A stretch of DNA of 64,000 nt from Patescibacteria group bacterium (GCA_035291665.1 DATDRP010000004.1:22272-86271); one strand, 5' to 3'. Positions 810 through 49,174 are shown, counted from the stretch's first letter. The notes: generated by a model from the letters alone, not told the origin. Numbers and translations: made by a program.

Positions 810-1247
810 CTGCTAATAAAATAAAAGGGTATTTTGTATTAATTTGTTGGGACTTTATCAAATATTAAAGGTGGGGAGGGGCAAAAGGATTAAATGCCAG
901 ACAACTTATTAGAGGTGGTCTGGTAAGACTTATAATATTGTCGCAAAAAAGTATATAGTACGATTCCGGTACTTGCTTGGAATCTGCGTAATTCTTACGA
1001 AATTATTTGATTGAAGGGAAGTATAACACCAATGTCAAGGAGTGCGGGGAGTCGAATTATGGTGCTTTAATTCGGCTGAATGTCGCAGATAATTACCATT
1101 AGGGAATATGCTGGGACTTGGATAAGATATTTGCATTGATTGTAGTTGCAAATTACTTAATATCCCAATATCCTAATCTCCTAATATCTTTTTCATTTTC
1201 CTCTTCTTTGAACTTACAATCCTTTGTCATATAATTAAGTACAAAAT

Positions 1248-4200
1248 ATGACTGAAATTAGAAAGTTACATAAAGCCGGATCAAGAAGAATCAGCTACAA
1301 TCATTCGGAAGTTGAGAAATACTGGCAAAAAGTTTGGGATAAAGAAGGTCTGTACACTCCCGATATTCATAAATCTGAAAACAAATTTTATAACCTTTGG
1401 ATGTTTCCCTATCCTTCGGCAGAAGGAGTTCATGTAGGAACTATCTTTTCATCAACAGGGAGTGACGTTTACGGGAGATTTATGCGTATGAACGGATATT
1501 CTGTTTTTCAACCGATTGGTTTTGATTCGTTTGGCATTCACTCTGAAAATTACGCGATTAAAATAGGGGAAAATCCACGGTTTACACTAGGTAGAACTCT
1601 GCCACACTTCAAGAATCAATTCAAAATGATAGGTCATGAGTATGATTGGACTAAAACAGTGACAACGTCCGATATAGATTACTATAGATGGACACAGTGG
1701 ATATTTGTTGAATTGTTTAAAAGCGGTCTTGCATATCGCAAATATGTCAAGGTAAATTGGTGCCCTTCGTGTAAAACTGTGATTTCGGATGAACAGGTTG
1801 TAACACCTGCCCAAGCAGGTAAGGATCCAAGGGATGAGAATGGGGAGATCGTTAAAGAGGAAGAGGGGATGCGGGTTTGCGAAAGATGCGGCTTTTTGGT
1901 TCAGGATAAAGAACTTGAACAGTGGATGTTTCGGATTACTGATTATGCAGACCGGCTTCTTGACGGTCTTGGGGGTATTGATTGGCCGGAAAAAATAAAA
2001 ACCGCGCAAAAGAATTGGATTGGAAAAAGTACCGGGGCGCTTTTGACTTTTAACCTACAACCTACAACCCACCCCCCTGCGCACAAGGCTTCGGAAGGGC
2101 AAAGTATCCTACAACCAATTACAGTCTTTACAACCCGGCCAGATACGGTATTTGGTGCAACATTTATGGTGGTTGCCCCGGAATATGCGCAAAAATATCT
2201 ACTTAAATATATATCTGAAGATAAAATAAACGATGTAACAAAATATATCAATATATCCTTAAAGAAAACAAAGGACATCAGACTATTAAATAAGGAAAAA
2301 ACCGGCATTGAAACGGGATTGTTTGCTCTTAATCCGGCAACCAAGAAAGATATTCCTATTTATGTAGCCGATTATGTATTATCAGATTACGGGACAGGGG
2401 CAATTATGGCAGTTCCTGCTCATGATGAAAGAGATTTTGCATTTGCGAAGAAATTTAATCTACCGATTCATAAGGTAATAGATCAGACCTTGGAAACGCA
2501 TACGGTTTTGATAAAAAACAGCTTGGAGGATGGTTTTTCCGATGAAATTCAAAAAAACAATTGGTATCTGACTGATTATTTTGATTGGGGTTATGGATTA
2601 GTTCTTCCAGCTTCAGATGAGCACAAATTAATTGAGGTCATTCAAAAGTTTCTAAAATCTGGTCCTTGGTATGTGCATACCGACGGAAGTCTTAAAGCTG
2701 TTATTTTTAAAGATAAAGTTTTCAGTATCGAAAATGAAAATGAGCAGGCGAAAGATTATGCAAGAGAAATTTCTGTTACTGAAGAACAAATAGACTGGGA
2801 CAACAAGGATAACTATATGTTTTGCCACAATAAGAATGGGGTATTAGTCGATTCCGGTTCATGGAATGGTTTGAAGTATCCGGAAGATTACGAAAAGATA
2901 CTCTCTGATGTAGAAAAAAATGGCTGGGGGGAAAGAAAATCACAGTATCATCTTCGGGATTGGCTGATAAGCCGTCAACGATATTGGGGACCACCGATAC
3001 CGATGGTATTTTGTAGTAACTGTAAGAGTAAGGGTAAGAGTTGGTTTACATCTGAAAAATTTGATAACTACAAAAAACATATTAGAAATTCGAAATTAGA
3101 AATTAGAAATTTCGACGATTGGTCATCGTCAGGCTGGTATCCGGAAGAGAATCTTCCTGTTGAGCTTCCCGATATTCAAAATTATCAGCCTGAAGGCAAC
3201 GGCCGGGGGCCTTTGGCGAATCATCCTGAATTTTACAAAACTAAATGCCCGGAATGCGCAAGTGTTGCTAGAAGGGAAACCGATGTATCGGATACTTTTC
3301 TTGATAGTGCATGGTATTTTCTTCGTTATCCAAGCGTAAGAATAGAAGATCAGGAGAGTAGAAGAGTAGAAGATAAAAACAACTTACCTCTTACAACCGA
3401 CAACTTACAACTTCCCTGGTCACCGGAGGTAACCAGGGAATGGCTTCCGGTTGATCTTTACTTCGGCGGAGCAGAGCATGCTGTACTTCACCTTATGTAC
3501 GCGCGGTTCGTTTGGAAAGTATTGCGGGATTTGGGATATCTTGATTCCCAAAATGACGAACCCTTCCCGCGCTTTTTTGCACACGGATTGATGATAAAAG
3601 ACGGTGCCAAAATGAGTAAAAGCAAAGGCAACGTTGTCAACCCTGACGATTATGTGGAGAAATACGGCGCAGATACTTTACGGTTATACCTGATGTTCAT
3701 GGGACCGATGGATGGATATCCCGATTTCCGGGATACCGGTATCGAGGGAATGAGAAGATTTATCGAAAAACTTTATCAAGTTTTTCAAATGTCAGACGAC
3801 AAATATCAAATCACAAATAAAAATAAATTAGAGATAAAACAACATCAAACTATAAAAAAGGTGACCGAAGAGATACAACAATTCAAATACAACACTGCAA
3901 TTGCAGCGATTATGGAATACGTGAACTCGCTCCGCGAGTCAATTTCCAATTCCAAATTTCTAATTTCTAAACAACCAAAAAATTTGACAATAAAGCGATT
4001 CAGTGGTGATAAAATGGAAGAATCACCCACTTCTCAGGTTCTACAACCTACAACCTACAACCTATATCTACAAACTCTTGCACTTCTACTTGCTCCTTTT
4101 GCTCCGCACATAACCGAAGAGGTATGGCATAAAATCCTCGGTCACAAAAGTTCTATTCATCTTGCAAAATGGCCAAAATACGATTCGGAATTGGTTAAAG

Positions 4201-4400
4201 AGGAAACTATAACTATTCCGGTTCAAATTAATGGAAAACTAAGAGGCACAATTCAAATTGAGGCTGGTAAGTCAAATGATAAAGAATATGTTTTGAGCTT
4301 AGCCAAGGAAAATGAAAAAGTAAACAAATGGCTGAGTGCAGGAACGGTTAAAAAAGAGATTTATATTGAAGGTAGACTGGTGAATTATGTGGTCAGTTGA
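1248..4400 (+). CDS. leuS: leucyl-tRNA synthetase with several lineage-specific in-frame insertions
   Basis: 1050 aa. The N-terminal class-I catalytic core, the CP1 editing region (TRPDT), GGAEHAVLHLMYARF and the KMSKSKGN motif are all present. Low-complexity inserts such as LQPTT repeats and IRNSKLEIRNF interrupt the conserved blocks. Confidence 0.95.
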   Translation: MTEIRKLHKAGSRRISYNHSEVEKYWQKVWDKEGLYTPDIHKSENKFYNLWMFPYPSAEGVHVGTIFSSTGSDVYGRFMRMNGYSVFQPIGFDSFGIHSENYAIKIGENPRFTLGRTLPHFKNQFKMIGHEYDWTKTVTTSDIDYYRWTQWIFVELFKSGLAYRKYVKVNWCPSCKTVISDEQVVTPAQAGKDPRDENGEIVKEEEGMRVCERCGFLVQDKELEQWMFRITDYADRLLDGLGGIDWPEKIKTAQKNWIGKSTGALLTFNLQPTTHPPAHKASEGQSILQPITVFTTRPDTVFGATFMVVAPEYAQKYLLKYISEDKINDVTKYINISLKKTKDIRLLNKEKTGIETGLFALNPATKKDIPIYVADYVLSDYGTGAIMAVPAHDERDFAFAKKFNLPIHKVIDQTLETHTVLIKNSLEDGFSDEIQKNNWYLTDYFDWGYGLVLPASDEHKLIEVIQKFLKSGPWYVHTDGSLKAVIFKDKVFSIENENEQAKDYAREISVTEEQIDWDNKDNYMFCHNKNGVLVDSGSWNGLKYPEDYEKILSDVEKNGWGERKSQYHLRDWLISRQRYWGPPIPMVFCSNCKSKGKSWFTSEKFDNYKKHIRNSKLEIRNFDDWSSSGWYPEENLPVELPDIQNYQPEGNGRGPLANHPEFYKTKCPECASVARRETDVSDTFLDSAWYFLRYPSVRIEDQESRRVEDKNNLPLTTDNLQLPWSPEVTREWLPVDLYFGGAEHAVLHLMYARFVWKVLRDLGYLDSQNDEPFPRFFAHGLMIKDGAKMSKSKGNVVNPDDYVEKYGADTLRLYLMFMGPMDGYPDFRDTGIEGMRRFIEKLYQVFQMSDDKYQITNKNKLEIKQHQTIKKVTEEIQQFKYNTAIAAIMEYVNSLRESISNSKFLISKQPKNLTIKRFSGDKMEESPTSQVLQPTTYNLYLQTLALLLAPFAPHITEEVWHKILGHKSSIHLAKWPKYDSELVKEETITIPVQINGKLRGTIQIEAGKSNDKEYVLSLAKENEKVNKWLSAGTVKKEIYIEGRLVNYVVS

Positions 4401-7261: not shown

Positions 7262-7385
7262 AAAAGTTGTAGGGTGTAGGAAATAGGTTGTAGGAAATAA
7301 GAAGTAGGTTGTAGGAGATGGGAAATATAGTAATTAAGTAATTAAGAGAAAGAAATGGGTTGTGAGAAGTGAGATGTGAGTGGTG
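7262..7385. repeat. intergenic array of short degenerate tandem repeats: (taggttgtagga)x3, (taattaag)x2, (gtgag[a/t])x4
   Basis: Direct reading of the sequence. aggttgtag is the reverse complement of the ctacaacct motif repeated inside leuS and near 49141. Confidence 0.7.
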
Positions 7386-7916: not shown

Positions 7917-8030
7917 GTTTTTTTTGAGCGCCAGTTGTCGAACGCGGAATTTTCAAGTTCGAAAGGACAATGCCTTTTGGAGGCAATAGCCAGTGAGATT
8001 CACGATAGCGAAAGGATTCATAATCAAAAA

Positions 8031-9881
8031 ATGGATATTAAATCACAAATAATAAACTCTCTTCGTAAGGTAACGGGTGAGGAAGTGATGAAACTCGATG
8101 TACCTGAAAGGGAAGAGTATGGAGAATACTCCTCAAACATAGCGATGCAAATATTTGCAGGGGTAAAAGACCCGCCTGCCGGACTGGCAGGGCAAGAGAG
8201 TGGAAGAGTGGAAGATAAGGGAAATGTCATTGTGAATCCGAGCTTGTCGGGGACGAAGCAATCTTATTATAACAACCCCCGTCAGTTAGCAGAAGAGATA
8301 GTGAATAAATTAAATAACGATAAGGAACTTCTTGAAGTTGTCGAAAAAATTGATGTTGCCGGACCGGGTTTTATCAATTTCCATCTAAAACCTGACGCTT
8401 TGACAACAATTCTACGGGGGGTTTTGGAAGAGGGAAGTGATTACGGTCGTCTTTTTGTTAATAAAAATAAAAAGCTTTCATTTGAGTTTGGTCAACCGAA
8501 TACTCATAAACTGCCCCATATCGGCCATTTGTTCTCATACATTTTGGGATCATCCCTGTCAAACATCCTGGAAGAAACGGGCTACGAAATTCGCCGCGCA
8601 AATTATCAAGGGGACATTGGTCCTCATGTGGCAAAGTGTCTATGGGCATTTCTTAAAGAAAACCCAACGGTACCAGAGGACCTGGAAGGTAAAGTTAAAT
8701 TACTCCAATTAATGTACCAGCATGGAAGTGCCGCCTATGAAAAAGGTGGTACGGAGAAAGACGAAATTGATAAATTAAATCAGGACATTTACAACAATGT
8801 ACCGGAGGTACAGGAAATTCTTACAAAAACAAGAGAGTGGAGTAAAACTTATTATAAACAATTTGAAAAAAGATTAGATATTGAATTTGATCGATATTAT
8901 TATGAATCGGAAGTCCATCAAAAAGGATATGAATTGGTTAAAAATAATATCGGTAAAGTATTTTCGGAAAGCGAAGGTGCAGTTATTTATGAAGGAAGTA
9001 AAGCCGGACTCCACGACCGGGTTTTTATCACTTCCAGGAATACTCCAACATATGAAGCAAAGGACGTTTGTCTTGAGATCCTGAAATATGAAGAATTTCC
9101 ATATGACAAACTGATTATCACAACCGCAAGTGAACAAAATGAGTATTTCAAGGTAATTTTTTCTGCTATTGAAAAAGTTATGCCCGAACTTAAAGGAAAG
9201 CTTGAACATATCGGTTTCGGAATGGTAAACCTGAAATCCGGTAAAATGGCTTCGAGAACCGGCGAAATTATCGGTGCTGTTGATCTTGTTGACATGGTCG
9301 TAGCCGAAATCAGGAAAATTGTTGAGGATCGAAAAGACCTTTCGGAAGCTGAAAAAGAAGAGATTGCCGAAAGTGTCGGAATAGGCGCTGTAAAATATTC
9401 GTTTTTGAAGAATTCACCGCTCAAAGATACGAAGTTTGACATTAAAGAGAGTATTTCCAAGGAGGGCAATTCCGGGCCATATCTGCAATATACTTATGCA
9501 AGAACGCAGAGCGTTTTGGAAAAAGCGAAAAAACCGTCTACAGCCAACAGTCTACAGATAACAGAAAAACAAAAAACTGTAGACAGTAGTCTGTCAGCTT
9601 TAAGCTTGAACGAAGAAGAATTAAATATTCTTCGTTCACTTCTTCATTTTCCCGAAGCTGTCGAGGCTTCAGCTATCAGTTATTCACCCAATTTAATATG
9701 TAATTATGTTTATGATCTGGCTCAGAAATATAATACTTTTTATAACAAGCACGATATTTTGGAGCAAAGAACAAAAGATAAAAAGGTAAGCGAATACCGA
9801 TTATCATTAACAAAGGCAGTTGGGATAGTGATTGAAAATAGCCTCAAACTGCTCGGGATAAAAACACTCCTTAAAATGTAA
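8031..9881 (+). CDS. argS: arginyl-tRNA synthetase (an alternative upstream ATG at 7935 would add 32 aa)
   Basis: The N-terminal Arg_tRNA_synt_N-like segment (MDIKSQIINSLRK...VPEREEYGEYSSNIAM), the class-I motif PHIGHL and the C-terminal DALR anticodon-binding domain are present. A low-complexity insert ...GQESGRVEDKGN... also occurs. Confidence 0.9.
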   Translation: MDIKSQIINSLRKVTGEEVMKLDVPEREEYGEYSSNIAMQIFAGVKDPPAGLAGQESGRVEDKGNVIVNPSLSGTKQSYYNNPRQLAEEIVNKLNNDKELLEVVEKIDVAGPGFINFHLKPDALTTILRGVLEEGSDYGRLFVNKNKKLSFEFGQPNTHKLPHIGHLFSYILGSSLSNILEETGYEIRRANYQGDIGPHVAKCLWAFLKENPTVPEDLEGKVKLLQLMYQHGSAAYEKGGTEKDEIDKLNQDIYNNVPEVQEILTKTREWSKTYYKQFEKRLDIEFDRYYYESEVHQKGYELVKNNIGKVFSESEGAVIYEGSKAGLHDRVFITSRNTPTYEAKDVCLEILKYEEFPYDKLIITTASEQNEYFKVIFSAIEKVMPELKGKLEHIGFGMVNLKSGKMASRTGEIIGAVDLVDMVVAEIRKIVEDRKDLSEAEKEEIAESVGIGAVKYSFLKNSPLKDTKFDIKESISKEGNSGPYLQYTYARTQSVLEKAKKPSTANSLQITEKQKTVDSSLSALSLNEEELNILRSLLHFPEAVEASAISYSPNLICNYVYDLAQKYNTFYNKHDILEQRTKDKKVSEYRLSLTKAVGIVIENSLKLLGIKTLLKM

Positions 9882-25957: not shown

Positions 25958-26074
25958 ATACCCCATCTGAAGGCAATTGCCGAAGGATGGGGATGAATTG
26001 AATTAAGAATGTAACCTCGTTTAGACGGATCCGAAAGGATACCCCGCCTGAAAGCGACAGCGAGAGGGTGGGGA
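25958..26074. repeat. tandem duplicated hairpin element (2 x ~55 bp): taCCCCaTCtgaaggcaattgccgaaggaTGGGG / taCCCCgCCtgaaagcgacagcgagagGGTGGGG
   Basis: Two adjacent stem-loops with 7-bp G/C stems sit in the intergenic gap between two minus-strand dockerin genes. The spurious 60-aa ORF 25900..26082 shows the repeat as HPxAxAFRxGIL x2. Confidence 0.55.
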
Positions 26075-26103
26075 GGTTTCATATCAATGTATAAGAAAAT
26101 AGA

Positions 26104-28005
26104 TCACTTCCCGTAATTTCCGAACCAGATGATGTAATCAGCTCCGTTAACTATGGTATCTCTATTAAAATCTCCTGCTGATGGACCTTGGCTGGTTGTT
26201 TTTTTGTAGTTATTAAACCAGATCAAGTAATCGGCTCCGTTTACTTTTCCGTCGCCATTTGCATCCCCCGGTTTTGAAGTCGCCGTCGGGGTGGCTGTTG
26301 GAGTAACACTCGGTCCGCCGGTTGGCGGAGTAGGAGTAGATGAAGCCTGCGGTGTAGGCGAGGGTGGTATCGAACCGTTTACACTTATAGCTGTTGAAAA
26401 TTCACTTGCCAGTCCCGACCACTCAACCGATTTAACTTTAAACCAGGTATTTGATGTTGATCCTTGGTATCCGATACTGCCTGTATACAACCAGACAAAA
26501 GAGTCGTTCCAATGCTCGGCCGCGGTTGATCCCAGTACTCCTCGGACCAAGCCTGTAAACGAGGTGGGGGTCCTGCCGGTATAACTGACTAGTTCATTTG
26601 GTTTTTCGGATGACAGACCGGATATCTCCAGTGTACCTTGATCTGGAAAACCTGTTGTAGAATCTACATTAATTGAAGTTTGGTTATTTGTAATTTTGCT
26701 GGGAGCGTTCAGGTACGTTAACAATGAGGGGAGCAATGCAATCTGGTTATAAGTTCCCCCCTGGCTGGTGGAACCGTATATTTGATATTCCTTAATTTCC
26801 CGATGGTTAGGAGCGGGTTTAAAAGTGACTATTACATTACCGCCCGACGAAACCGCTTTCATATCAGAAGGTGCGGCGGGTTTCTTAAAAATAACATAGT
26901 AGAGATTTTTGTTTCCAGCTTGGCGAATATCTCCGCTAAATGCAATTTTAGTCGTATCGGGACTGAAGCTGGCGTTGACATAATCCCTGCCCGCATCACT
27001 CCCGTAATTTGCCACTCTTACCGGAGCCGATCCGGAAGTTGTGAGCGGTTGCGGAACACTGAAGACAAGAACGTGACCAACCTCGCCTCCAAGGTTAGCT
27101 CCCAGAACCATCCATTTAGCGTCAGGACTGAAGTTGGTGTGATCGCCATAAACTGCACCGTTTATCATAGTTAATTGTCTGGTTGCCGTATCTCGGGCAA
27201 AAAGAGTATTTGCATATTGAAAATCCGACCCATTCCCTCCGATCCAACCTTGACCTCCACCAATCATATAAGCAGAATCGGACAGGGTAGGATGGTCAAA
27301 AAGTCCTGCCCAGGTTTGGTTCCCTACATTAAGCTGGCCAAGAAATGTACCGGTATTAACATCAAAAACCATCGGTACATCTGTATATTGTTCCCATTGG
27401 CTATTATTAAGATACCAAGCGGCATTGTTACCCAGCCAGCCGTGGGTAACATCAAACCCACCTGACTGTCTGCCGGGGGAAACATAACCACGGCAATTTG
27501 TACCGTCAAGGTTAATGAACTTAACTGTACCTGTCCCGGAGCTGATATCGTTGGAGTTAGCAATACCTGAGAGTGTCCTTCCGTCGGGGCTAAGCATAGA
27601 AAAATAAAAAGGGAGGCAGGATGAGGCATTTGGAATTTGTGAAGATATGTTAGCGGCGATTTCTGTTTGGTAGAGATTTTCTTTTGAATAGTAGAACTTG
27701 CTGTCGTGGCTCCACCATCCCATCAGACCTTCCCCGACACCGCTGGAAGGGGCGCTTAAAGTGTGATTATTGTTTCCGTCAGTATTCATAACGTTATTAG
27801 GTCCGGTGATTATATATTGGCCATTAGGACTGAATGGGTTGGAAGTGTAATAAGAGGTAGGGTAGCTTGCAGAAGTATTAGTCATTCGCCATATTTCAAA
27901 GCCGGTTTCCGGATCGGTAAAGATTTCCTTGGGAGCTGCCTGAACAGGTGAGACAAAGATGGTAATAGTTAATATTGCGATAAAAACCTTAAACCAATGT
28001 GACAT
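26104..28005 (-). CDS. secreted beta-propeller (TolB/WD40-like) plus Fn3-like protein with C-terminal dockerin-like module
   Basis: Signal peptide, repeated propeller-blade-like segments, a Fn3-like domain, a TP-rich linker (TPTATPTATSKP) and GDANGDGKVNGADYLIWFNNY...GDFNRDTIVNGADYIIWFGNYGK. Confidence 0.65.
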   Translation of the reverse strand: MSHWFKVFIAILTITIFVSPVQAAPKEIFTDPETGFEIWRMTNTSASYPTSYYTSNPFSPNGQYIITGPNNVMNTDGNNNHTLSAPSSGVGEGLMGWWSHDSKFYYSKENLYQTEIAANISSQIPNASSCLPFYFSMLSPDGRTLSGIANSNDISSGTGTVKFINLDGTNCRGYVSPGRQSGGFDVTHGWLGNNAAWYLNNSQWEQYTDVPMVFDVNTGTFLGQLNVGNQTWAGLFDHPTLSDSAYMIGGGQGWIGGNGSDFQYANTLFARDTATRQLTMINGAVYGDHTNFSPDAKWMVLGANLGGEVGHVLVFSVPQPLTTSGSAPVRVANYGSDAGRDYVNASFSPDTTKIAFSGDIRQAGNKNLYYVIFKKPAAPSDMKAVSSGGNVIVTFKPAPNHREIKEYQIYGSTSQGGTYNQIALLPSLLTYLNAPSKITNNQTSINVDSTTGFPDQGTLEISGLSSEKPNELVSYTGRTPTSFTGLVRGVLGSTAAEHWNDSFVWLYTGSIGYQGSTSNTWFKVKSVEWSGLASEFSTAISVNGSIPPSPTPQASSTPTPPTGGPSVTPTATPTATSKPGDANGDGKVNGADYLIWFNNYKKTTSQGPSAGDFNRDTIVNGADYIIWFGNYGK

Positions 28006-28058
28006 GGAAGTAATTTAATAATCCATCAAAGTGAGGGTTGATGTCAATAAAATTCAAT

Positions 28059-30686
28059 TTATTTCCCGTAATTCCCGAACCAGATGATGTAATCAGCTCC
28101 GTTAACTATGGTATCTCCATTAAAATCTCCTGCTGATGGACCTTGGCTGGTTGATTTTTTATAGTTATTAAACCAGATCAAGTAATCGGCTCCGTTTACT
28201 TTTCCGTCGCCATTTGCATCCCCCGGTTTTGAAGTCGCCGTCGGGGTGGCTGTCGGTATGATCGTCGGTATGGGAGTAGATATTCCGGTTGGGAAGGCCG
28301 TTGGTATAGGTGTGGATGTTGGTACGGGACTTCCGGTGTGGACTGCTTTGATGGCAATATCTTTATTAAGACCGCTTACGGGTATGGACAATGTACCTCC
28401 AGACGAGATTACACTGGTTGTAACTGCACCGGTATAAGTATTCCAGTACTCAATATTATATGTTCCCGCCTGAAGGTTCGGGATAGAAACGGTCGGATTG
28501 ATCGTCCCTGGTGTACCGGTATTTGACCAAATATAATCCCGATGCTGTACCCAAAGATATGCCCGGTAGCGGTCTCCGCTCACCAGTGCAAAGGCGCGGG
28601 TTTTACCTCCGGTATCGTTTTGGACAGAAAGCGTAGTACCGGTGTATCCGGATGGGGTGTCGGCCGCAGTCATGACGGAGGTGAAATTACTGGTTGAAAA
28701 ACTGATATTCTGAAAGAAATTTTTCATTACAAGTTTTTCCTGATTTACTAAATTTGAATATGAGCTGTCGTTTTGATTGTCATACCAGAATATGGGAGTG
28801 GTAGCCATTGGTGAGAACAGTCCGGTCCAGGCTCCATTATGATGTGCCCGGTGGGCACCCTCTCCGGTGGTTCCCTGCGGATTTGGCTGGTTCCATTCCG
28901 TCGTTCCCACACCGATTTCACCCCAGACAAACGGGCGGGGAGCCGATCCGGGTGTCCAATCGGTGCTGTCGCCGATACCCAAACCGTCGCAGTAATATTT
29001 ACCATACTGTCGGCCGTAGAGACACCAGGCAAAACGATGCACGAAGTTGACTTCATCGTTAGTAAGAGCGGAAGAGTAGCGGCTGATCATCATATAATCA
29101 TGGTAATTGGTGAGGTTGAATGCAGGGGAGGACCAGAATGCCGGACTGAATGCCTGAGATCCCTGGGAAGTGGTGCGCATGTGCTGGTAAATATCGGTTT
29201 GCTTCTGATAATCAGCATACTGTTGGAAGAAATTAAATATTGATGTATTTGGAAGAACATGGCCAAGCTCATTATGGTTTTCCCAGGCAAGAATTGATGT
29301 TGCGTATCCCCACCGGGCCACACGGTAACGGAAATTCCGCTGCCAGCTTTTCAGTACCCACGGTTGCGACCAGTCCCAGGAATCAGGCGATTCAGGGTTA
29401 CCCGGCCAGGTAAACCAGGGACCCGAGCAGGAACAAAGCTGGATATAGACACTATTGGTTACTCCTGCGTCGATATACTGATCTTGCAGCCAGCATTCTT
29501 CCGGATTGAAGTAATTACCTAACGGACGGGGTAGCGTTGTATTCGAATTCGGATCGTTATTGACATTATCCTTGGCGAAATGCCGTTCCATATCACCGTC
29601 TGTTACTATCGAATAAAGGATGTTTCCCTGCGCGTCTACCGGTCCGAATTCAACATCATCAACATAACCACTACCTTGGAAGTAGACTACTAGATCCGAT
29701 GAAGGAGTATATGTGCGTTCTGAAAGGGTATAACTGGTGGAGTTGGCGTCGATCTGGGTGCCGGAGATTACGCTTCCCGGAAGCACCCCATTCAGTGACC
29801 TGAGGGATACGGTGACAGTGCCTTTGGTCCAGACTTTTAATTTATGGGAGCGGTTGGGTTCGGTGACAGCTAAACGTTGATACCAGGCTGTTCCGGGTTG
29901 AGCTGCCCTCATACCGGAATGGGTATTAGTATTGATTGTTACTCCGACGGCAGCCCCGTCTGTCGTGGAAGCATTAATCCAGGTTGTATGAGCGCCTTCG
30001 ACCCCCAGTGAAAAATCATTCTGGTCCCAAATCCGGATCAAATTAATTCCGTACTGCTTATCCTGAACAAATCTGCTTTCGTAGTTATCTCCCCAGGGAT
30101 ACCCGCGGGAAAGGGGGACATATGACGAGCCGTTGTCAAACACCATGTACCGGGGATCCTGTGGATTAGGCTTTATAAATCCCGGATTGGAATTGTCGGC
30201 TGTGATGCTGAAAGTTTGGGCAGAGGTTTGGGTCTTACCTTCTTTATCTTCAGCACTGACAGTATAAGAATAAGTTCCGACCTCCGACCAGGTGAACCGT
30301 CCTTTCCACACGGGAAGACCGGACTTACCCATAACATTTCTGCTTCCGACAATGTGCCGGGTGTAATCCTGGTAAAAGAATGCCGGAAGTACAAGCTGTT
30401 TACCGCTGGGTGTAGTGATGTTGATATTAACGGTTACTCCATCCACACCAAACCATGTCATACGCGACGGGTTTGCTGCCTGGGTGTCAGACGGATCGTA
30501 GAAATAATAAGGATTGGGGTACGTTTTGGATAGATTAAATGAGAATTCGATTTTCTGATATTTTTTAACCGATGCTGACGAAGGAGAAACCGTAACAGGT
30601 CCGGTAACCTGCGGGGCGGCTGCCTTTACCGGTACAGAAGAAATAGCAAGAAATAAAAAAATTAGAATAGCTTTTTTATATAGCAT
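28059..30686 (-). CDS. secreted putative glycoside hydrolase (N-terminal beta-sandwich plus TIM-barrel-like domain) with C-terminal dockerin-like module
   Basis: Signal peptide. An internal segment LAWENHNELGH is reminiscent of a clan GH-A catalytic NE motif, but the family is unassigned. The C-terminal linker and dockerin are nearly identical to those of the 26104 gene. Confidence 0.55.
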   Translation of the reverse strand: MLYKKAILIFLFLAISSVPVKAAAPQVTGPVTVSPSSASVKKYQKIEFSFNLSKTYPNPYYFYDPSDTQAANPSRMTWFGVDGVTVNINITTPSGKQLVLPAFFYQDYTRHIVGSRNVMGKSGLPVWKGRFTWSEVGTYSYTVSAEDKEGKTQTSAQTFSITADNSNPGFIKPNPQDPRYMVFDNGSSYVPLSRGYPWGDNYESRFVQDKQYGINLIRIWDQNDFSLGVEGAHTTWINASTTDGAAVGVTINTNTHSGMRAAQPGTAWYQRLAVTEPNRSHKLKVWTKGTVTVSLRSLNGVLPGSVISGTQIDANSTSYTLSERTYTPSSDLVVYFQGSGYVDDVEFGPVDAQGNILYSIVTDGDMERHFAKDNVNNDPNSNTTLPRPLGNYFNPEECWLQDQYIDAGVTNSVYIQLCSCSGPWFTWPGNPESPDSWDWSQPWVLKSWQRNFRYRVARWGYATSILAWENHNELGHVLPNTSIFNFFQQYADYQKQTDIYQHMRTTSQGSQAFSPAFWSSPAFNLTNYHDYMMISRYSSALTNDEVNFVHRFAWCLYGRQYGKYYCDGLGIGDSTDWTPGSAPRPFVWGEIGVGTTEWNQPNPQGTTGEGAHRAHHNGAWTGLFSPMATTPIFWYDNQNDSSYSNLVNQEKLVMKNFFQNISFSTSNFTSVMTAADTPSGYTGTTLSVQNDTGGKTRAFALVSGDRYRAYLWVQHRDYIWSNTGTPGTINPTVSIPNLQAGTYNIEYWNTYTGAVTTSVISSGGTLSIPVSGLNKDIAIKAVHTGSPVPTSTPIPTAFPTGISTPIPTIIPTATPTATSKPGDANGDGKVNGADYLIWFNNYKKSTSQGPSAGDFNGDTIVNGADYIIWFGNYGK

Positions 30687-30696
30687 TTATTTTGAT

Positions 30697-33342
30697 TTAT
30701 TTTATAGTAATTTGACTCGGATCGGTGGCGAATATCACCGGATCACCTTGGAAAAATTCCACTTTACCTTCAACCCAAATTGATTGGTGAAGCTGGTAGT
30801 CTTTTTCTATATTTGGGAAGTTGCTTAATTGTTCAACCGGGATTAAAACCTGTAACAACTGACTGTGAGGCTCATCGCAACTAAGGTAATAGTAACGGCT
30901 GCTTTTATGAATATATTTTATTTCGCAAGATGTTTTTATGTTTTGGAATTCGTATCCGATTGCGTAAAAGTAGGCAATAGATTGTGGTGGTCCTGATTCG
31001 ATATCAGCACCCAGCTGAATATTGGAAATCCCTGCAACCTCCGGAGATGATATTGTATTTGTATCAGCTTGAGTTCCTACATCTTTCAGAACAAAAATGG
31101 TGTTATTTATACTTTTGACTATAATATATTTTCCGCTTACCAGAACATATGGATTGATTGTCCAACCCCGCCCGTCAGCGTAAAATCCGTCGGGATAGCT
31201 ACGGTTACCACCTTCTGCACAGAGGTTAGTACACCAATGTGTAGTAGTGTTACAATTGCCGCACTGCTCCGCTGAAACGAATGGAGTATAAGAACCATTA
31301 ATAGGGTTTGTAAAAGTGGCACCGCGACTGTCACTTCTGTCAGTGATTTTCAGCCCTTCCAGTACAGCCAACCAGTGTGAGTGAAAAACCATATCACTGG
31401 AACCGGAAACCATACCCTGTTCATCCGTTTGGATATCAATAAACTTAACAAATCGAGCATCACCTCCGGTATATCCGGTGACAGTAGAATTATCCAAGAC
31501 CATTTCACCCATGGTGGCATCCTCACGGTAATCACACCAACCGCTGGCACAGGTTTGACCATTGCTATAGATTATGTACGCCACCTGCTTACCATTAGAA
31601 AGAGTACGGACAGCTGGTTGGGGACCGGAATAAAGCCAACCATTACCAAAAGCTCCAAATTTAATGGCTGGGGTAAACATTCGGGCACCTGTGTCCAAAC
31701 TCAAAGCGAAGAGGGTTTGATAATTAGGATTCGCATCAAGGGTTTGTTTAATACCGGCGTTTGTGGTCGGCATGGGAGAAGCAAAATACATTGCATTGTA
31801 ACCATGGCGCATTCGCATGAGTACAATTCCTGTATTGTCAGCGATGACAGGCCAGTTATGTCGGAATTCGTAACAGGCGCTACCTTCTCCGTCCGAGCCA
31901 CAATACCAATTGTTTGTTGTTGGTTTTACATTCCATCGGAGGGTACTACTACTATTGTTGATCGCTCTGACTCGTAAATCCGGATCAGTTGCATAAACAA
32001 TCACATCATACCGGGCGGAATATGAAGGCATGGTAACTTGATTAATACCTGAACCGGGGTTATACGGCCACCCGCCACCCGGAGAACTAAGGTTCGCTGT
32101 AGAAAGTTTATGTAATTTTCCATCATTGGCGGTAAAATAAACATAGTTTCCAGCAATTAACGGGGAAGTGGTTAAACTTGCTCCGGCATTAAAACTATTG
32201 AGCGTTGTACCGTTTGATCCGTTTAATTTGTATAATGTATTTCCAGATGCAACAAAAACTGCATCTGTACCCGAATCATATGCTGCCGAACTGTTAAGAC
32301 CTCCAAGACTTTTTGTCCAAATATTTGATCCATTGGTAAGATTCAGTGCGTACAAAGTTCCGTTTCCAGCCGGTACATATACTCGATTATTTCCGACAGT
32401 CGGGTAGACTTGATACTCAGAAACGGAATCTACATCGCTTCTCATCCATTGGTAAGCCCAACTATTTGAAAGGTCAACGGTATTCCATCCGGTTCTCTGA
32501 GCGTTAAAAGCGTGTTGGCTCCATTCGGTGGTGGGATTACTTGGCATCAGAGTCGGGGTTGGACCACTTGGTGTGGGGGTTGGCTGTTGGACTGTCGGAG
32601 TCGGAGGGACAGGTGTATTGGTTGCATTGGGAACAGGCGTATTTGTCGGATTGGGTGTGGGATTGGGTCCTGATGTATTTATGGTAATTCTATCAATGTC
32701 GGGTGCATACCCTGTATTATTAAGGAACCTTATAGTGTTATTTCCGGATGCAAGACTTACCGATATAGCTTTTGATGCAACTGTTGTCCAGCTTCCTGAA
32801 TTGGCGAATGAGTACAAAGCTGCAGCACTGCCGTTTATGCTTATTGACACATCCCGGTTGGGATCGCCGCTAATATAATATACAGTCATCGTGTAGGCAG
32901 CTTGTGAAAGAGAACTAATATTATTAAATTGAAGGTAATTCCCCGAACCTCCACCTATCCAGCCTACAATTTGTCCGCCTGAACATGTTGTACAGCTTCT
33001 TGCAGCAACAGCTCCCGCAAATGTATTTGAAGTTGATTCCGCTTCATATGAGGCAGTTCCTCCACCTATCGGAGTTGGAGTGGGGCCAACCTTACCGTAA
33101 TTATTAAACCAGATGAGGTAATCGGCTCCGTTCACTATGGTGTCACCATTAAAATCACCGGCTGATGCTCCCTGACTGGTTGACTTTTTATAATTGTTAA
33201 ACCAGACAATATAGTCGGCTCCATTTACTTTCCCGTCACCATTAGCATCTCCGGGAAGCGGTGATTGAGCTGCAGCATAATTGGAGCATGTTAAAAATAT
33301 TAAGGAAAATACCAATACAATCTTAAAATAAAGATTTCTCAT
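30697..33342 (-). CDS. secreted PQQ-like beta-propeller protein with N-terminal dockerin-like module
   Basis: Signal peptide, then PGDANGDGKVNGADYIVWFNNYKK...GDFNGDTIVNGADYLIWFNNYGK, a TP linker, PQQ-like repeats (YALNLTNGSNIWT...) and a Cys-rich C-terminal domain (WCDYREDATMGEMVLD). Confidence 0.7.
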   Translation of the reverse strand: MRNLYFKIVLVFSLIFLTCSNYAAAQSPLPGDANGDGKVNGADYIVWFNNYKKSTSQGASAGDFNGDTIVNGADYLIWFNNYGKVGPTPTPIGGGTASYEAESTSNTFAGAVAARSCTTCSGGQIVGWIGGGSGNYLQFNNISSLSQAAYTMTVYYISGDPNRDVSISINGSAAALYSFANSGSWTTVASKAISVSLASGNNTIRFLNNTGYAPDIDRITINTSGPNPTPNPTNTPVPNATNTPVPPTPTVQQPTPTPSGPTPTLMPSNPTTEWSQHAFNAQRTGWNTVDLSNSWAYQWMRSDVDSVSEYQVYPTVGNNRVYVPAGNGTLYALNLTNGSNIWTKSLGGLNSSAAYDSGTDAVFVASGNTLYKLNGSNGTTLNSFNAGASLTTSPLIAGNYVYFTANDGKLHKLSTANLSSPGGGWPYNPGSGINQVTMPSYSARYDVIVYATDPDLRVRAINNSSSTLRWNVKPTTNNWYCGSDGEGSACYEFRHNWPVIADNTGIVLMRMRHGYNAMYFASPMPTTNAGIKQTLDANPNYQTLFALSLDTGARMFTPAIKFGAFGNGWLYSGPQPAVRTLSNGKQVAYIIYSNGQTCASGWCDYREDATMGEMVLDNSTVTGYTGGDARFVKFIDIQTDEQGMVSGSSDMVFHSHWLAVLEGLKITDRSDSRGATFTNPINGSYTPFVSAEQCGNCNTTTHWCTNLCAEGGNRSYPDGFYADGRGWTINPYVLVSGKYIIVKSINNTIFVLKDVGTQADTNTISSPEVAGISNIQLGADIESGPPQSIAYFYAIGYEFQNIKTSCEIKYIHKSSRYYYLSCDEPHSQLLQVLIPVEQLSNFPNIEKDYQLHQSIWVEGKVEFFQGDPVIFATDPSQITIK

Positions 33343-33466
33343 ACTATGTACGGAAGTTTAATATACTTCTTAAGTCTATCTTACGAAGAATTTAATTATC
33401 AAGGACTAATTTGTAATTGGCCACAGAAGCCTGATATAAGAGTATATAAATAGTATTGGAAAGTTA
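33343..33466 (-). promoter_or_regulatory. conserved intergenic promoter region upstream of the 30697..33342 gene (duplicate of 37169..37291)
   Basis: The ~120-bp intergenic sequence is about 90% identical to the region upstream of the paralogous PQQ gene. On the minus strand it contains TTGATA...TATATT-like elements. Confidence 0.35.
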
Positions 33467-34699
33467 TTATTTGTTGTAGTTACTAAACCATACAATATAG
33501 TCAGCTCCGTTAACTATGGTATCTCTATTAAAATCTCCTGCTGATGGACCTTGACTGGTTGATTTTTTATAATTTGCAAACCAGATCAAATAATCCGCTC
33601 CGTTAACTTTCCCGTCACCATTTGCATCTCCGGGTTTGGAAGTCGCCGTTGGGGTGGCTGTCGGTATGATTGTCGGTGTGGGAGTAGGAGTATTGATAAC
33701 TCCGGATGTCGGAGTCGGGGAGGGGGGGCGCACTGTTGGTGTGGGAGACGGATTAACAGAAATTCCCGCGTTGGTCAGAATTTCCGTATCAGAAAAGAGT
33801 GTAAACGTTTGTGCGTATTTGCTGTTCATTGGTTCCATGAAGAGCTTATTTGAAAGCATGCCGTTAAGAACCGTACCCATATGACTGTCACTCATTACAG
33901 CGTTGTGAGGTTCATTATTGAATGAAGTAAGGCTTATTGTTTCGCCGGCAATCGTAAAACTGGTTCCGGCAAGTTGTGTACTTGCCCATTTATTAAAATC
34001 AAATAACGCGAGATTCCGTTGGGAAGCAATTGTTGCTATTCCCTGATTGACTGTATTAATAGCCTGGGTGGCACGTTGGCGTCCGGTTGCATTTGGGTAA
34101 AGCGATTGGATAAGCAAAAACTGCCCGGGATCACCGATGTTGGCAATTATTATTGGTATGTTTTTGGTGTTCAGGATTGTATCAACAGCGGTAGTAATAT
34201 TTGCAAGAATTCCGTTTATTTTTGATTGAATTTGGGCATCAGTCATTGTGCCGTTGTAAATTGGATCGTACGTGGCAACAGCAGGGTTAGGACTGAAATC
34301 ATTTGTTCCGATCCAAATTACTGCATGGGTAACCAATCCTTGTTGTACTTGTGAAGCCAAACCTGTATGTTGTCCCGAAGTAATCATGGATGACGCGTTA
34401 GCGGCAGTTCTTGCCCAATTGTATGCATACCCGCACCGTCTTGGTTCCGAACGGCATCCCCAAGCTCCCGCATTAACACCCCGGTATTTCACCAAAAGCT
34501 CTAACCAATTATAAGTTGTTGCACTATAGCTTCCACCCCGGTTATCATCAGCCCTGTATTCATCGGTATTGCTATCACCCAATATACCCAGCCCGGTAAT
34601 CGGCGCCCCTAATACTTTACCTGTAAAAAAGAGCTGGAAAATGAGTACCAGTAAGAAAATTTTAATTTTTGAGTTTTTCAATTTCAATTTAAGGTTCAT
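33467..34699 (-). CDS. secreted SGNH/GDSL-family hydrolase (esterase/lipase-like) with C-terminal dockerin-like module
   Basis: Signal peptide, a GDSNTD block-I motif (ILGDSNTDEY) and WIGTNDF. C-terminal TPTPT linker and dockerin. Confidence 0.7.
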   Translation of the reverse strand: MNLKLKLKNSKIKIFLLVLIFQLFFTGKVLGAPITGLGILGDSNTDEYRADDNRGGSYSATTYNWLELLVKYRGVNAGAWGCRSEPRRCGYAYNWARTAANASSMITSGQHTGLASQVQQGLVTHAVIWIGTNDFSPNPAVATYDPIYNGTMTDAQIQSKINGILANITTAVDTILNTKNIPIIIANIGDPGQFLLIQSLYPNATGRQRATQAINTVNQGIATIASQRNLALFDFNKWASTQLAGTSFTIAGETISLTSFNNEPHNAVMSDSHMGTVLNGMLSNKLFMEPMNSKYAQTFTLFSDTEILTNAGISVNPSPTPTVRPPSPTPTSGVINTPTPTPTIIPTATPTATSKPGDANGDGKVNGADYLIWFANYKKSTSQGPSAGDFNRDTIVNGADYIVWFSNYNK

Positions 34700-34855
34700 A
34701 TAATTTTCCGCTTAGTAATTTCTTGGTTATTGCTATTATTTATATTACCCTGTTATGGAATATTTTTAAACTGTCTTTAAAAAACCCTTCCTGGGCGGTG
34801 AGTATTTCATAAGTAAAGAGAGCGGCCTTTGAAAACCATAGATATTAAAGTTGGA

Positions 34856-37168: not shown

Positions 37169-37291
37169 ACTATATACGGAAGTTTTGTATAATTGTTAAG
37201 TCTATCTTACGAAGAATTTGATTATCAAGGACTAATTTGAGTTTAGCCACCAGCAAACGATATACATATATATAGTAGTATGGTAAAGGTA
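37169..37291 (-). promoter_or_regulatory. conserved intergenic promoter region upstream of the 34856..37168 gene (duplicate of 33343..33466)
   Basis: See the 33343..33466 entry. Confidence 0.35.
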
Positions 37292-39649: not shown

Positions 39650-39733
39650 AATAAAGCCTTATATCATTTTGTTGCGGTTGAACATTGAAGTCAAGTGGTG
39701 TCAATGTTGTTTATCTCGAATATTAACAAAAAC

Positions 39734-40897
39734 TTACTTTCCGTAATTACCAAACCAAACTAAATAGTCTCCACCATTAACAAATCCATCCTCGTTAAAG
39801 TCTCCTGCTAATGCTCCCTGGCTGGTTGATTTTTTATAGTTATTAAACCAGACCAAATAATCCGCTCCGTTTACTTTCCCGTCGCCATTAGCATCCCCCG
39901 GTTTTACAGCAATTATCGGGGTAGCTGTTGGAGTAAGACTGGGTCCGCCGGTTGGGGGAGTAGAAGCACCGGGGATTGAACTTGCAATCCAAACAGATCC
40001 TTGCCGAAGATCGCCGGTTATACCGTTACCACTAGCGTCATTCAAAATATATCCCGTCCCATTACCCTCATCCAGGTGATATAAAAGTAGTGTATTTATA
40101 TCATTAATGTATGGATTTGAGGGAGGAGTAAAACTTCCCTGATACCGTAAATTATTTGAGATCCTCAGTTCATCAAAATAACCGTTGTATGATGGATATT
40201 GACTTCCTGCATCATGTTTTTCAGCAGCAATGACAAGGTATGGGTCGCTCTCATTACAACTCGGTCCGGTTGAAAGATTAGTACAGCAGGTTGAACAGGG
40301 GACTGCGTTATCGGGATAAGATATTACTCCGTCAGGTCCGTCTGCTTCTGCCCTGACAATCCCGTCAACAAAGATCCACATATATCCATCCGATATTCGT
40401 CTCTCAATGGCAACATGGTGCCAAATGTCGTCAAGTACGGTATTACCACCGCAGATTGTGCGGTTTCCCGTACCGTTACCGCTGACGCCGAAAACCAATT
40501 TTCCGCCGGCAATTGATAAGCCGAATTTTCTGTCCTGGTTAAATCGGTCGCGGTCGATGACAATATTTCCGAATATCCAGTTGTCATTTGTTCCGCATGC
40601 GACGGATGAAGATGTATTATCAGCGCTTTTTGCTCTCATCCAAAATTCCAATGTAAAATCAGTATCTCCGATATCAGCAGCAGTACTTTCTGAATTTTGA
40701 CCATTAATTGGAATTTTAATCCGATCGAGCTGATTTGTGCCGGTTCCGTTAAACTTGAGAGCCGATCCAAAATCTGCGTAAGCTTTATTAAAGTTTGATA
40801 TTAAAAGAAAGAAAGCCGTAAGAAAAATAGTTAATAATCTCAACTGAAGGCTAATTGTAATTTTGTTTTTGAAGCGCTTTGTTAACATGATGTTCAA
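39734..40897 (-). CDS. secreted LamG/concanavalin-A-like lectin domain protein with C-terminal dockerin-like module
   Basis: Signal peptide. LamG-like pattern (LEFWMRAKS...DDIWHHVAIER...FDELRISN). C-terminal linker and dockerin (GDANGDGKVNGADYLVWFNNY...GDFNEDGFVNGGDYLVWFGNYGK). Confidence 0.7.
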   Translation of the reverse strand: MNIMLTKRFKNKITISLQLRLLTIFLTAFFLLISNFNKAYADFGSALKFNGTGTNQLDRIKIPINGQNSESTAADIGDTDFTLEFWMRAKSADNTSSSVACGTNDNWIFGNIVIDRDRFNQDRKFGLSIAGGKLVFGVSGNGTGNRTICGGNTVLDDIWHHVAIERRISDGYMWIFVDGIVRAEADGPDGVISYPDNAVPCSTCCTNLSTGPSCNESDPYLVIAAEKHDAGSQYPSYNGYFDELRISNNLRYQGSFTPPSNPYINDINTLLLYHLDEGNGTGYILNDASGNGITGDLRQGSVWIASSIPGASTPPTGGPSLTPTATPIIAVKPGDANGDGKVNGADYLVWFNNYKKSTSQGALAGDFNEDGFVNGGDYLVWFGNYGK

Positions 40898-48919: not shown

Positions 48920-49174
48920 AAGTTTGATTTTTGATCTGCAACTCATACAGGACAGGTCAATTCCTGTCCGCCTGTCCCGTTAGAAGCGCAAGCTTTCTAA
49001 TGGGATTGAGCTACAGAGGCGTATCCAGACATATTTTATCATGATAAAGGATAAATCCGCTATGGATTTGATAAGAGATTGTATATTTTGGAATGTAACT
49101 ACCGGTGTATGATGGAGTTGTTTCCTATGTTTTTTTCTACCTACAACCGACAACCTAAAACCTATTTCCTAAAC

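Follow-up and report, generated by a model that had tools for sequence, protein, structure and literature searches.

Heptanucleotide arrays as in-frame loop inserts in the leucyl-tRNA synthetase gene of a Patescibacteria group bacterium: probable members of a dispersed family

The leucyl-tRNA synthetase (LeuRS) gene, leuS, of an uncultured Patescibacteria group bacterium with a small genome was found to contain four in-frame inserts built from very short tandem arrays, nearly all with a unit of seven nucleotides. The gene lies in a stretch of 64,000 nt (GCA_035291665.1 DATDRP010000004.1:22272-86271, one strand), referred to here as the window, and the insert sites are numbered S1 to S4. The inserts are probably in-frame members of a dispersed family of heptanucleotide arrays, selected for frame, for the absence of stop codons and for location in loops. 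Copying between sites, with local modulation, is a more likely source of the inserts than local change alone. An initial annotation of this DNA had described the four inserts as recent, repeat-mediated insertions of intergenic motifs; that interpretation was largely right and incomplete.

The leuS gene is a single intact open reading frame (ORF), and its coordinates are collected with those of the other features in Table 1. Its product contained the Pfam domains tRNA-synt_1 (PF00133), LeuRS editing domain (PF13603) and Anticodon_1 (PF08264), and the structure of the T. thermophilus LeuRS, 1h3n, was aligned to it over all domains (E = 4.5e-176). The catalytic core, the CP1 editing domain, the anticodon-binding domain and KMSKS were present, as in a class Ia bacterial LeuRS. 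The NCBI entry 'leucine--tRNA ligase [Patescibacteria group bacterium]', from a metagenome-assembled genome, matched the protein at 100%, and the next-nearest homologues were Woesebacteria/Microgenomates enzymes with no more than 61% identity. Two independent assemblies, one from Logan (SRR3989307) and one from ENA, were 100% identical to the window across 6153 bp, and the inserts are therefore not an assembly artefact. The exact protein was present on 8 contigs and its 90%-identity cluster consisted of one sequence; no length variants were found among the 8 contigs or in the cluster. Typical short reads are longer than the arrays, which have 31 nt or less.

The arrays in the window were resolved with Tandem Repeats Finder (TRF). 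The four low-complexity segments of the initial annotation were found in their places in the one ORF, and their repeat units, given there as 8 and 9 nt, were corrected to 7 nt, with 8 nt in one array. The arrays are short, with 3-5 units. As seven is not a multiple of three, the frame shifts from one unit to the next and returns after three units, or 21 nt and seven codons. Over this length CTACAAC is translated as LQPTTYN and ATTAGAA as IRNSKLE. An identical 18-mer is common to S1 and S4b, and the core of S1 was 87% identical over 30 nt to L066:545-574. The S2 motif was matched on the minus strand of S4a at 3950-3966; against the reverse complement of S2, S4a had 87% identity across 30 nt. 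The inserts give the junction-spanning peptides ...FNLQPTTHPP... and ...HIRNSKLEIRNF....

The array of S2 is an exact 31-mer, and the same 31-mer was found, nucleotide for nucleotide, at the equivalent LeuRS site of two deep relatives, L034 and L045 (45-57% identity). L034, a Woesebacteria LeuRS with 57% identity, was retrieved independently of the motif, and the pair of the window and L034 is therefore free of ascertainment bias. An exact-match scan of the metagenome collection placed the 31-mer on 28 contigs with unrelated flanks. Its hosts, judged from the flanking peptides without a domain-library run, included a third LeuRS with the 31-mer at the same site and ValRS-, TsaD-, SufC-, UvrC- and ComF-like genes; the 31-mer is thus a conserved multi-copy sequence inserted in frame into unrelated genes, as are elements of the miniature inverted-repeat transposable element (MITE) and Rickettsia palindromic element (RPE) types. 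A perfect ATTAGAA array would have stops in every frame of both strands, and the 31-mer is open in exactly one frame per strand because its single C removes an in-frame TAG. The stop-breaking codon is TCG, one of about eight possible single-step fixes. In about 25 of the 28 contexts the 31-mer was in the sense frame of a long ORF, with the reading IRNSKLEIRN. Among ortholog pairs with 44-57% amino-acid identity, the codons for identical residues matched in only 42-51%, so that ten identical codons at S2 have a probability of about 1e-4 to 1e-3 even given the same peptide. Imperfect relatives of the 31-mer, with T or other substitutions or with shifted boundaries, were found on the same contigs.

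Two nucleotides past the 31-mer, the window contained a small perfect hairpin. The hairpins at S2 in the array-bearing orthologues were also perfect, with stems of 8 bp (L034) and 11 bp (L045), and no hairpin was found at S2 in the array-less orthologues. Of the 28 copies, 5 were directly abutted by a perfect hairpin (stem of 8 bp or longer, unrelated in sequence), compared with 1.8% of the control windows; these hairpins, immediately 3' of the 31-mer in L034, L045, L046, L055 and L067, had stems of 8-19 bp. An exact match to the 31-mer was not found in IMG/VR, and a phage origin was rejected on that ground. Few known dispersed elements would be as small as the 31-mer, should active copying of the arrays prove correct.

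Arrays of the same kind were present elsewhere in the window in clear excess over chance. The CTACAAC dimer pattern CTACAACCTACAACC gave 6 matches with up to two mismatches, where 0.06 were expected, and the ATTAGAA pattern AAATTAGAAATTAGAAA gave 4 matches under the same limit, where 0.14 were expected. Period-7 arrays numbered 14 in the window against 1.55 expected from a third-order Markov model, an excess of about 9-fold; leuS, with 4.9% of the window, held 6 of the 14 (Poisson P ~1e-4). Head-to-tail 7-nt arrays that are dispersed and over-represented, as in the heptanucleotide simple sequence repeats of the short tandemly repeated repetitive (STRR) kind, were thus found in leuS, in argS (7935-9881) and in intergenic DNA. 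The intergenic copies within the window belonged to the CTACAAC family only, with a minus-strand match at 7265-7279 (within 7265-7300); the ATTAGAA family was intergenic only in relatives, and the AAGAGTAG-type motif recurred in the coding DNA of argS (QESGRVEDKGN, compared with QESRRVEDKNN in S3 of leuS). Within the window, the statement that the leuS units match the intergenic repeats holds for CTACAAC only. In the argS product, the Pfam Arg_tRNA_synt_N domain spanned 118 aa for 84 model positions.

LeuRS was aligned to 1h3n and to sets of 45, 37 and 120 orthologues, and modal site lengths were taken from the 120 nearest LeuRS. All four sites fell between conserved LeuRS blocks, where the initial annotation had placed them. 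Jointly they are about 77 aa above the modal lengths, and the size of 1050 aa, which had been attributed to the inserts, is only in this part due to them, a further ~98 aa being from a folded non-repeat domain. The expanded sites of other orthologues contained unrelated sequences (at S3, for example, IGNWKLEI and LQPTTHKLQL), and IRNSKLEIRN and LQPTT were each found in 2 of the 120. Period-7 arrays in 37 leuS genes of species-representative genomes were clustered at about seven sites, the four insert sites among these. The closest relative (L044/P0002, 61% identity) has the same atp operon-leuS-comEA order; its leuS was devoid of S1 and of the CTACAAC array of S4, and contained a different insert at S2 and (AATTGGA) x4.6 at S3. 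The first part of S4 was weakly common to this relative and is therefore older. The same leuS (L044:6001-9270) had inserts of its own, namely an N-terminal tandem duplication (FYKRSLQNGKP / FYNRSLQNGKP) and a C-terminal insert, LGIRHKALGIRRKQNTSSYKFVISD, from a TTAGGCA x4.7 array. In the AlphaFold2 model of LeuRS (mean pLDDT 84, pTM 0.78) all four inserts were coil, with pLDDT below 50 in S3 (aa 701-719) and S4 (aa 908-933), about 62 in S1 and about 67 in S2. The inserts appear to be fast-changing, tolerated floppy loops and not functional domains, which agrees with the loop tolerance proposed in the initial annotation. The possibility that S1-S4 are ancient domains was rejected, since IRNSKLEIRN and LQPTT each occur in just 2 of the 120 nearest LeuRS.

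Related loci amounting to 598 kb were surveyed and contained 172 period-7 arrays, a count biased by the seeded loci. Most arrays in these relatives appear to sit inside genes, though they are denser per kb outside coding DNA: with crude gene calls and seeded loci included, 116 of the 172 arrays were inside ORFs, and the density was 0.55/kb in non-coding and 0.23/kb in coding DNA. When the seeded copies were excluded, 31 of 99 coding arrays formed a distinct length mode of 4.3-4.7 units (30-35 bp), with few arrays at 21-29 bp and nearly none above 36 bp. The mode takes in perfectly homogeneous arrays of unrelated units, and a preference for about four units, as in STRR-type repeats, was thus observed. 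The consensus unit was stop-free on the sense strand of 30 of the 47 coding arrays, compared with the antisense strand of 16 of the 47 (P = 0.007) and with 15 of 40 intergenic strands.

The turnover of the arrays is fast, because L045 and L048 have LeuRS genes with about 97% identity whose differences are nearly confined to array sites. At S3, L045 contained (TCCAAAG) x4.1 and L048 a single copy, a difference of exactly 21 nt, and two further arrays were swapped between them for arrays of similar length with a different unit, for example AATTTCC and AAAGTTA. In two other relatives, a composite element was found twice in one leuS in the same frame. In L004, the hairpin TCCCGC-CAT-GCGGGA followed by a GAAAATG array was present at L004:5414-5659 and L004:5849-5974; in L007, a 75-bp GC-rich element with the inverted termini GCCGAGT...ACTCGGC was present at L007:2988-3089 and L007:3603-3743. 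CTACAAC arrays of 3-5 units were also present, apparently mostly outside long ORFs, on 10 viral contigs of IMG/VR (L073-L082; G+C 0.32-0.62). No sequence was shared by the flanks of CTACAAC x3 among distinct viral contigs, and with such different G+C contents the viral arrays are uninformative on origin. It may be that short arrays of some four heptamers are widespread. A search for palindromes or terminal inverted repeats in S1-S4 gave no significant result, the DNA-fold z-scores being +1.26, -1.34, +1.14 and -1.46, respectively.

Under the favoured explanation, the family would consist of very short arrays in which a 7-nt unit is repeated about 3-5 times, to a usual total of 30-33 nt; some are fused to another array or to a short stretch that is unique or forms a hairpin. 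The arrays would be generated and mainly copied between sites by a short-patch process, for which gene conversion, template switching and a tiny non-autonomous mobile element are candidates, and local gain or loss in steps of three units would also occur. Selection, in a genome that is about 88% coding, would then keep the copies that add a multiple of three nucleotides, that have no stop in the sense frame, and that fall where a large protein, LeuRS or ArgRS for example, has a solvent-exposed loop tolerant of changes in length. The copying part is favoured because the exact 31-mer is dispersed, units are shared within the genome, double insertions occur in L004 and L007, and arrays are replaced in the ~97% identical pair; the local part, because L045 and L048 differ by 21 nt at S3. 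The stop-avoidance signatures suggest that the encoded peptides are translated, and near-neutral disordered loops, and not functional domains, are their most likely state. As to the claims of the initial annotation, the inserts are indeed repeat-derived and lineage-specific, at length-variable sites, though a mere insertion of intergenic repeats is too simple an account. That they are recent was not fully supported: S2 is identical in L034 and L045, which does not fit a single recent random insertion, the start of S4 is older, and with the closest relative at 61% the inserts are undated here. The orthologue comparison that it had proposed showed that the closest relative lacks or replaces the inserts, and the alternative that it had named, ancient conserved domains, was not supported, S1-S4 being unconserved across the 120 nearest LeuRS.

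Several observations weigh against this explanation. The exact 31-mer was found about once per contig even on contigs of 237-796 kb, which is few for an active mobile element. That lineages with 45-57% identity have the 31-mer unchanged at one and the same site of LeuRS would not be predicted from random insertion and selection. No enzyme, target-site duplication or conserved flank that would explain copying was found around the 28 copies. The sharp size mode and the four-unit preference in unrelated bacteria point to a local generative mechanism, which copying leaves unexplained. The coding and non-coding statistics are based on crude longest-ORF gene calls, and the near-neutrality of the loops is an assumption drawn from their location and rapid turnover only.

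The size mode leads to the alternative of purely local microsatellite dynamics, in which slippage or template switching would act on a chance proto-repeat, and identity across sites would be convergence from AT-rich seeds under selection against stops. The step of exactly three units between L045 and L048 is in its favour. Among perfectly homogeneous arrays, whose many units are unrelated, the copy number is always 4.1-4.7, which fits a seed of 1.x units plus three units, the smallest in-frame step; the perfect hairpins that abut arrays are what quasi-palindrome correction by template switching would give, and CTACAAC x3-5 on viral contigs of widely different G+C, like the four-unit preference of the Xanthomonas and Nostoc heptamers (PMC4692102), also fits. 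However, a single interruption out of about eight possible ones (TCG) is identical in 28 unrelated contexts, and elements composed of a hairpin and an array are present twice, at different sites, in a single gene. Slippage cannot convert an AATTTCC array to an AAAGTTA array of equal length, and a jump from one to four copies is not classical slippage. We regard local dynamics as the whole explanation to be unlikely, although worth serious consideration.

A bolder possibility, put forward here only tentatively, is that Microgenomates carry an undescribed class of ultra-small heptanucleotide cassettes of about 31 nt that are actively copied or converted by dedicated machinery into a limited set of permissive sites, including the same loops of essential proteins in species that diverged deeply. 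Such machinery, for which a templated polymerase, a reverse transcriptase and a recombinase are conceivable, would have left as its footprints the exact 31-mer with its conservation between orthologous sites, the constant size near 4.5 units and the perfect hairpins next to the arrays. It might also account for the heptamer repeats of cyanobacteria and Xanthomonas.

Conservation of the DNA itself would be expected if the arrays, chiefly the 31-mer, were functional motifs at the nucleic-acid level, such as a protein or RNA binding site or an oriented chromosomal signal, and were translatable only incidentally. The nucleotide identity at orthologous sites of genes 44-57% identical, against the background codon match of 42-51%, and the strong sense-strand orientation bias of the 31-mer speak for it, as do the phased CTA-NNN-C heptamers in intergenic runs and the frequent position of intergenic arrays just upstream or downstream of genes. 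We consider it improbable, since there is no single motif and the units are very diverse, exact 31-mers occur about once per contig, unrelated arrays substitute for each other between close strains, and neither an Rfam match nor significant structure was found. The orientation bias is equally explained by a poorer tolerance of the hydrophobic antisense peptide FLISNFEFL.

The inserts could also be adaptive, serving as disordered linkers or interaction surfaces of LeuRS suited to the lifestyle of the reduced-genome bacteria of the Candidate Phyla Radiation (CPR). The same loops are expanded in many orthologues, the peptides are hydrophilic, and for Borg elements a function has been suggested for tandem repeats that create disorder (PMC9879509). 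Nevertheless, close relatives have unrelated sequences in these loops, the same DNA is present in intergenic regions and in proteins of unrelated function, and there is no amino-acid conservation across the LeuRS family, which makes an adaptive role quite improbable. Classical miniature elements of the MITE or RPE type, mobilised in frame by a transposase, are a very improbable source: the in-frame insertion into unrelated housekeeping genes does resemble that of RPEs (PMC10969869), the 75-bp element of L007 with its terminal inverted repeats is present twice in leuS, and the argS inserts have hairpins, but the leuS inserts of the window are devoid of terminal inverted repeats and of significant hairpins (z -1.5 to +1.3), no target-site duplications were seen around the 28 copies of the 31-mer, ~31 nt is far below the size of a MITE, and no transposase was found among the annotated part of the 64-kb window. 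That the inserts are assembly or sequencing artefacts, or ancient conserved domains of LeuRS, as their low complexity and the occurrence of S2 in two distant relatives might suggest, is scarcely credible, given assemblies identical over 6153 bp, the exact protein on 8 contigs and the absence of the inserts in 118 of the 120 orthologues.

Other candidate inserts in leuS were examined and set aside. The segment at 3022-3041 (GTAAGA x3.3, CKSKGKS) lies inside a conserved block and its peptide is kept in the closest relative; that at 2242-2257 (AATATATC x2) encodes the KYINIS peptide, which L006 has as well. An intein was ruled out, the inserts of 10-35 aa being far below intein size. The site of the weak array at 3799-3826 is 22 aa long, compared with a modal 24 aa, and L019 has an array at the equivalent position; since the net length is unchanged, this array is possibly due to chance or old. 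No known structured RNA was found in leuS with Rfam, and only three tRNAs in the window, all outside leuS, passed the gathering threshold.

Behind the editing domain, LeuRS contained an extra folded domain (aa ~410-526), with pLDDT of about 90 in the full-length AlphaFold2 model and 82.5 when modelled alone. It was kept in L044 and in five other orthologues. A Pfam match was not found, and the PDB fold search gave nothing below E = 0.03; weak matches to PII/ACT-like folds were the only ones obtained for the ~110-aa domain. Judged from the models it is a genuine folded domain, accepted here as of the ancient-domain type, unlike S1-S4. Other Microgenomates LeuRS contained at this position a NUDIX domain (P0007, P0012) or a different domain of ~140 aa (P0022, P0087), and the position after the editing domain looks like a hot spot for domain insertion. 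The HIGH signature of LeuRS was HVGT (window 1425-1445, aa 60-66), with HMGT in the closest relative and HAGH as the family consensus; the first histidine is invariant and the second is substituted with threonine.

Further observations were made in the window and in the related loci. In an adenylate-kinase-like ORF of 369 aa (41019-42128), the ADK match was stretched over residues 67-290 for 146 model positions, which suggests that this protein has large insertions too. The region at about 26000-40000 had a raised G+C (0.43-0.48, compared with 0.36-0.39 elsewhere) and six large minus-strand ORFs of 410-881 aa, and may be a compositional island. Conserved 18-mers with no relation to the heptamer arrays (TAGTTTGATGCATTTTGA and CCACTGTGTCCATCTATA are examples) recurred in 7-11 different loci of L001-L072; they may belong to a conserved gene segment or represent a further dispersed element.

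Table 1. Positions of leuS, its four inserts and other features of the window. Site lengths are in amino acids: here; modal; number of the 120 orthologues in which the site is expanded.
Feature	Position	Strand	Repeat or structure	Encoded peptide, effect or setting	Site length
leuS	1248-4400	+	single intact ORF	1050 aa; bacterial-type LeuRS, Microgenomates/Woesebacteria-like Patescibacteria	
S1	2052-2120	+	AACCTAC x2.6 at 2052-2069; 38-nt unique core; one further CTACAACC at 2108-2115 (TRF)	~+14 aa (LQPTTHPPAHKASEGQSILQP), at start of editing domain	25; 11 (in 99/120); 12/120
S2	3081-3111	+	ATTAGAA x4.4 (TRF); exact 31-mer ATTAGAAATTCGAAATTAGAAATTAGAAATT	~+11 aa, read IRNSKLEIRN	43; 32; 40/120
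Small perfect hairpin	3114-3130	+	GACGAT-TGGTC-ATCGTC, 6-bp stem	DDWSSS	
S3, whole				~+17 aa	29; 12; 34/120
S3a	3338-3373	+	AAGAGTAG x4.5 (8-nt unit, TRF)	RIEDQESRRVED	
S3b	3379-3413	+	ACAACTT x5.0 (TRF); CTACAAC unit with one base changed	NNLPLTTDNLQL	
S4, whole				~+35 aa	49; 14; 79/120
S4a	3941-3970	+	AATTTCT x4.3 (TRF); degenerate reverse-orientation copy of ATTAGAA array	SNSKFLISK	
S4 core	3971-4040	+	unique 70 nt; weak hairpin GGTGAT...ATCACC	QPKNLTIKRFSGDKMEESPTSQV; partly common to closest relative	
S4b	4041-4064	+	CTACAAC x3.4, perfect (TRF, 100% matches)	LQPTTYNL	
Weak period-7 array	3799-3826	+	ACAAATA x4.1 (TRF, 77% matches)	DKYQITNKNK	
Extra folded domain	2475-2825	+	non-repeat	LeuRS aa ~410-526, behind editing domain; ~98 extra residues	
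Intergenic array	1158-1188		TAATATCC x3.9 (8-nt unit, TRF)	60-90 nt upstream of leuS start	
Intergenic heptamer run	7266-7380		~14 phased units: GTTGTAG (CTACAAC reverse complement), then GAAATAG, GAAATAA ... GTGAGAA (TRF)		
Intergenic array	49139-49164		ACCTACA x3.7 (TRF)	CTACAAC family	
argS insert 1	8185-8215	+	hairpin CCTGCC..GGCAGG, then AGAGTGGA x2.4 (8197-8215); fold z-score -2.79	in frame	
argS insert 2	9532-9590	+	in-frame GTCTACA-type heptamers and inverted copy forming a palindrome (TRF); fold z-score -2.19		

A description of heptamer arrays in CPR genes was not found in full-text searches of a limited library. Essential, slowly evolving CPR enzymes would, on the favoured explanation, be continuously remodelled at a few loops by non-triplet repeats, possibly through a mutational or mobile process that has not been reported. 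Why bacteria build up heptamer arrays with about four units has been asked since 1990, and the constraint of the reading frame makes the process legible here, as steps of three units, stop-breaking substitutions and orientation bias. Such inserts also inflate protein lengths, give spurious low-complexity matches between unrelated proteins, and can mislead the alignment, phylogeny and domain annotation of CPR genomes.

Comparable repeats are known from several systems. The STRR sequences of heterocystous cyanobacteria and other heptamer repeats were reportedly described by Mazel in 1990 and Mrazek in 2007. The small dispersed repeats (SDR) of the Nostocaceae were treated by Elhai and co-workers in 2008 (Genome Res 18:1484, as cited in PMC5861425). 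The SDR are dispersed sequences of 21-27 nt, apparently mobile, often located in heptamer arrays and associated with hairpins, and no enzyme is known to mobilise them. They resemble the present arrays in being very small, dispersed, apparently mobile, and heptamer- and hairpin-associated. They have a conserved sequence and secondary structure and are confined to the Nostocaceae, whereas here the heptamer array itself is dispersed, without significant structure, in Patescibacteria and predominantly in frame within ORFs.

A preference for four units was reported for the heptanucleotide repeats GGGAATC of Xanthomonas and GGGGA(C/T)T of Nostoc (Rehm et al., 2015; PMC4692102). The leuS arrays share with the STRR, Xanthomonas and Nostoc repeats the head-to-tail 7-nt arrangement, the genome-wide and over-represented occurrence, the size of about four units, and an origin and function that are unexplained. 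Repeats of the STRR type are G-rich, thought to form G-quadruplexes, mostly intergenic and depleted in coding DNA; the present arrays are AT-rich with diverse units, most of those in the surveyed loci appear to lie inside genes, including those of essential aminoacyl-tRNA synthetases, where they are apparently translated, and one imperfect array is an exact dispersed 31-mer. The RPE are palindromic elements of ~150 bp with a conserved peptide per family (Ogata et al., 2000, 2002, summarised in PMC10969869). Like these, whose added peptide segment can be accommodated by the host protein in both folding and function, the leuS inserts are in frame and their family is found in unrelated housekeeping genes, but they are 20-35-nt tandem arrays of many different units and are not palindromic.

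The tandem repeats of Borg elements evolve fast, preserve the frame in ORFs and create disordered regions (Schoelmerich et al., 2023; PMC9879509), and in both systems related proteins carry repeats at similar places. The in-ORF units of Borg repeats are divisible by three and present in many perfect copies, whereas here the unit is 7 nt (8 nt in one array), with about four units, in core essential enzymes of a cellular genome, so that the frame is kept only through the total length. Phase-variable heptanucleotide contingency loci, for example neuO and HMW1A, are likewise 7-nt tandem repeats inside or next to genes, in which a change of copy number reportedly shifts the frame or alters expression (PMC13001214, PMC8262952). 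These loci are reportedly long perfect tracts in surface or virulence genes that vary within populations, in contrast to the often interrupted arrays of at most five units in the essential leuS. The non-triplet unit, the tiny size, the non-palindromic sequence, the diversity of units and the location in aminoacyl-tRNA synthetase genes of Patescibacteria set the present arrays apart from the STRR, SDR, RPE and Borg repeats.

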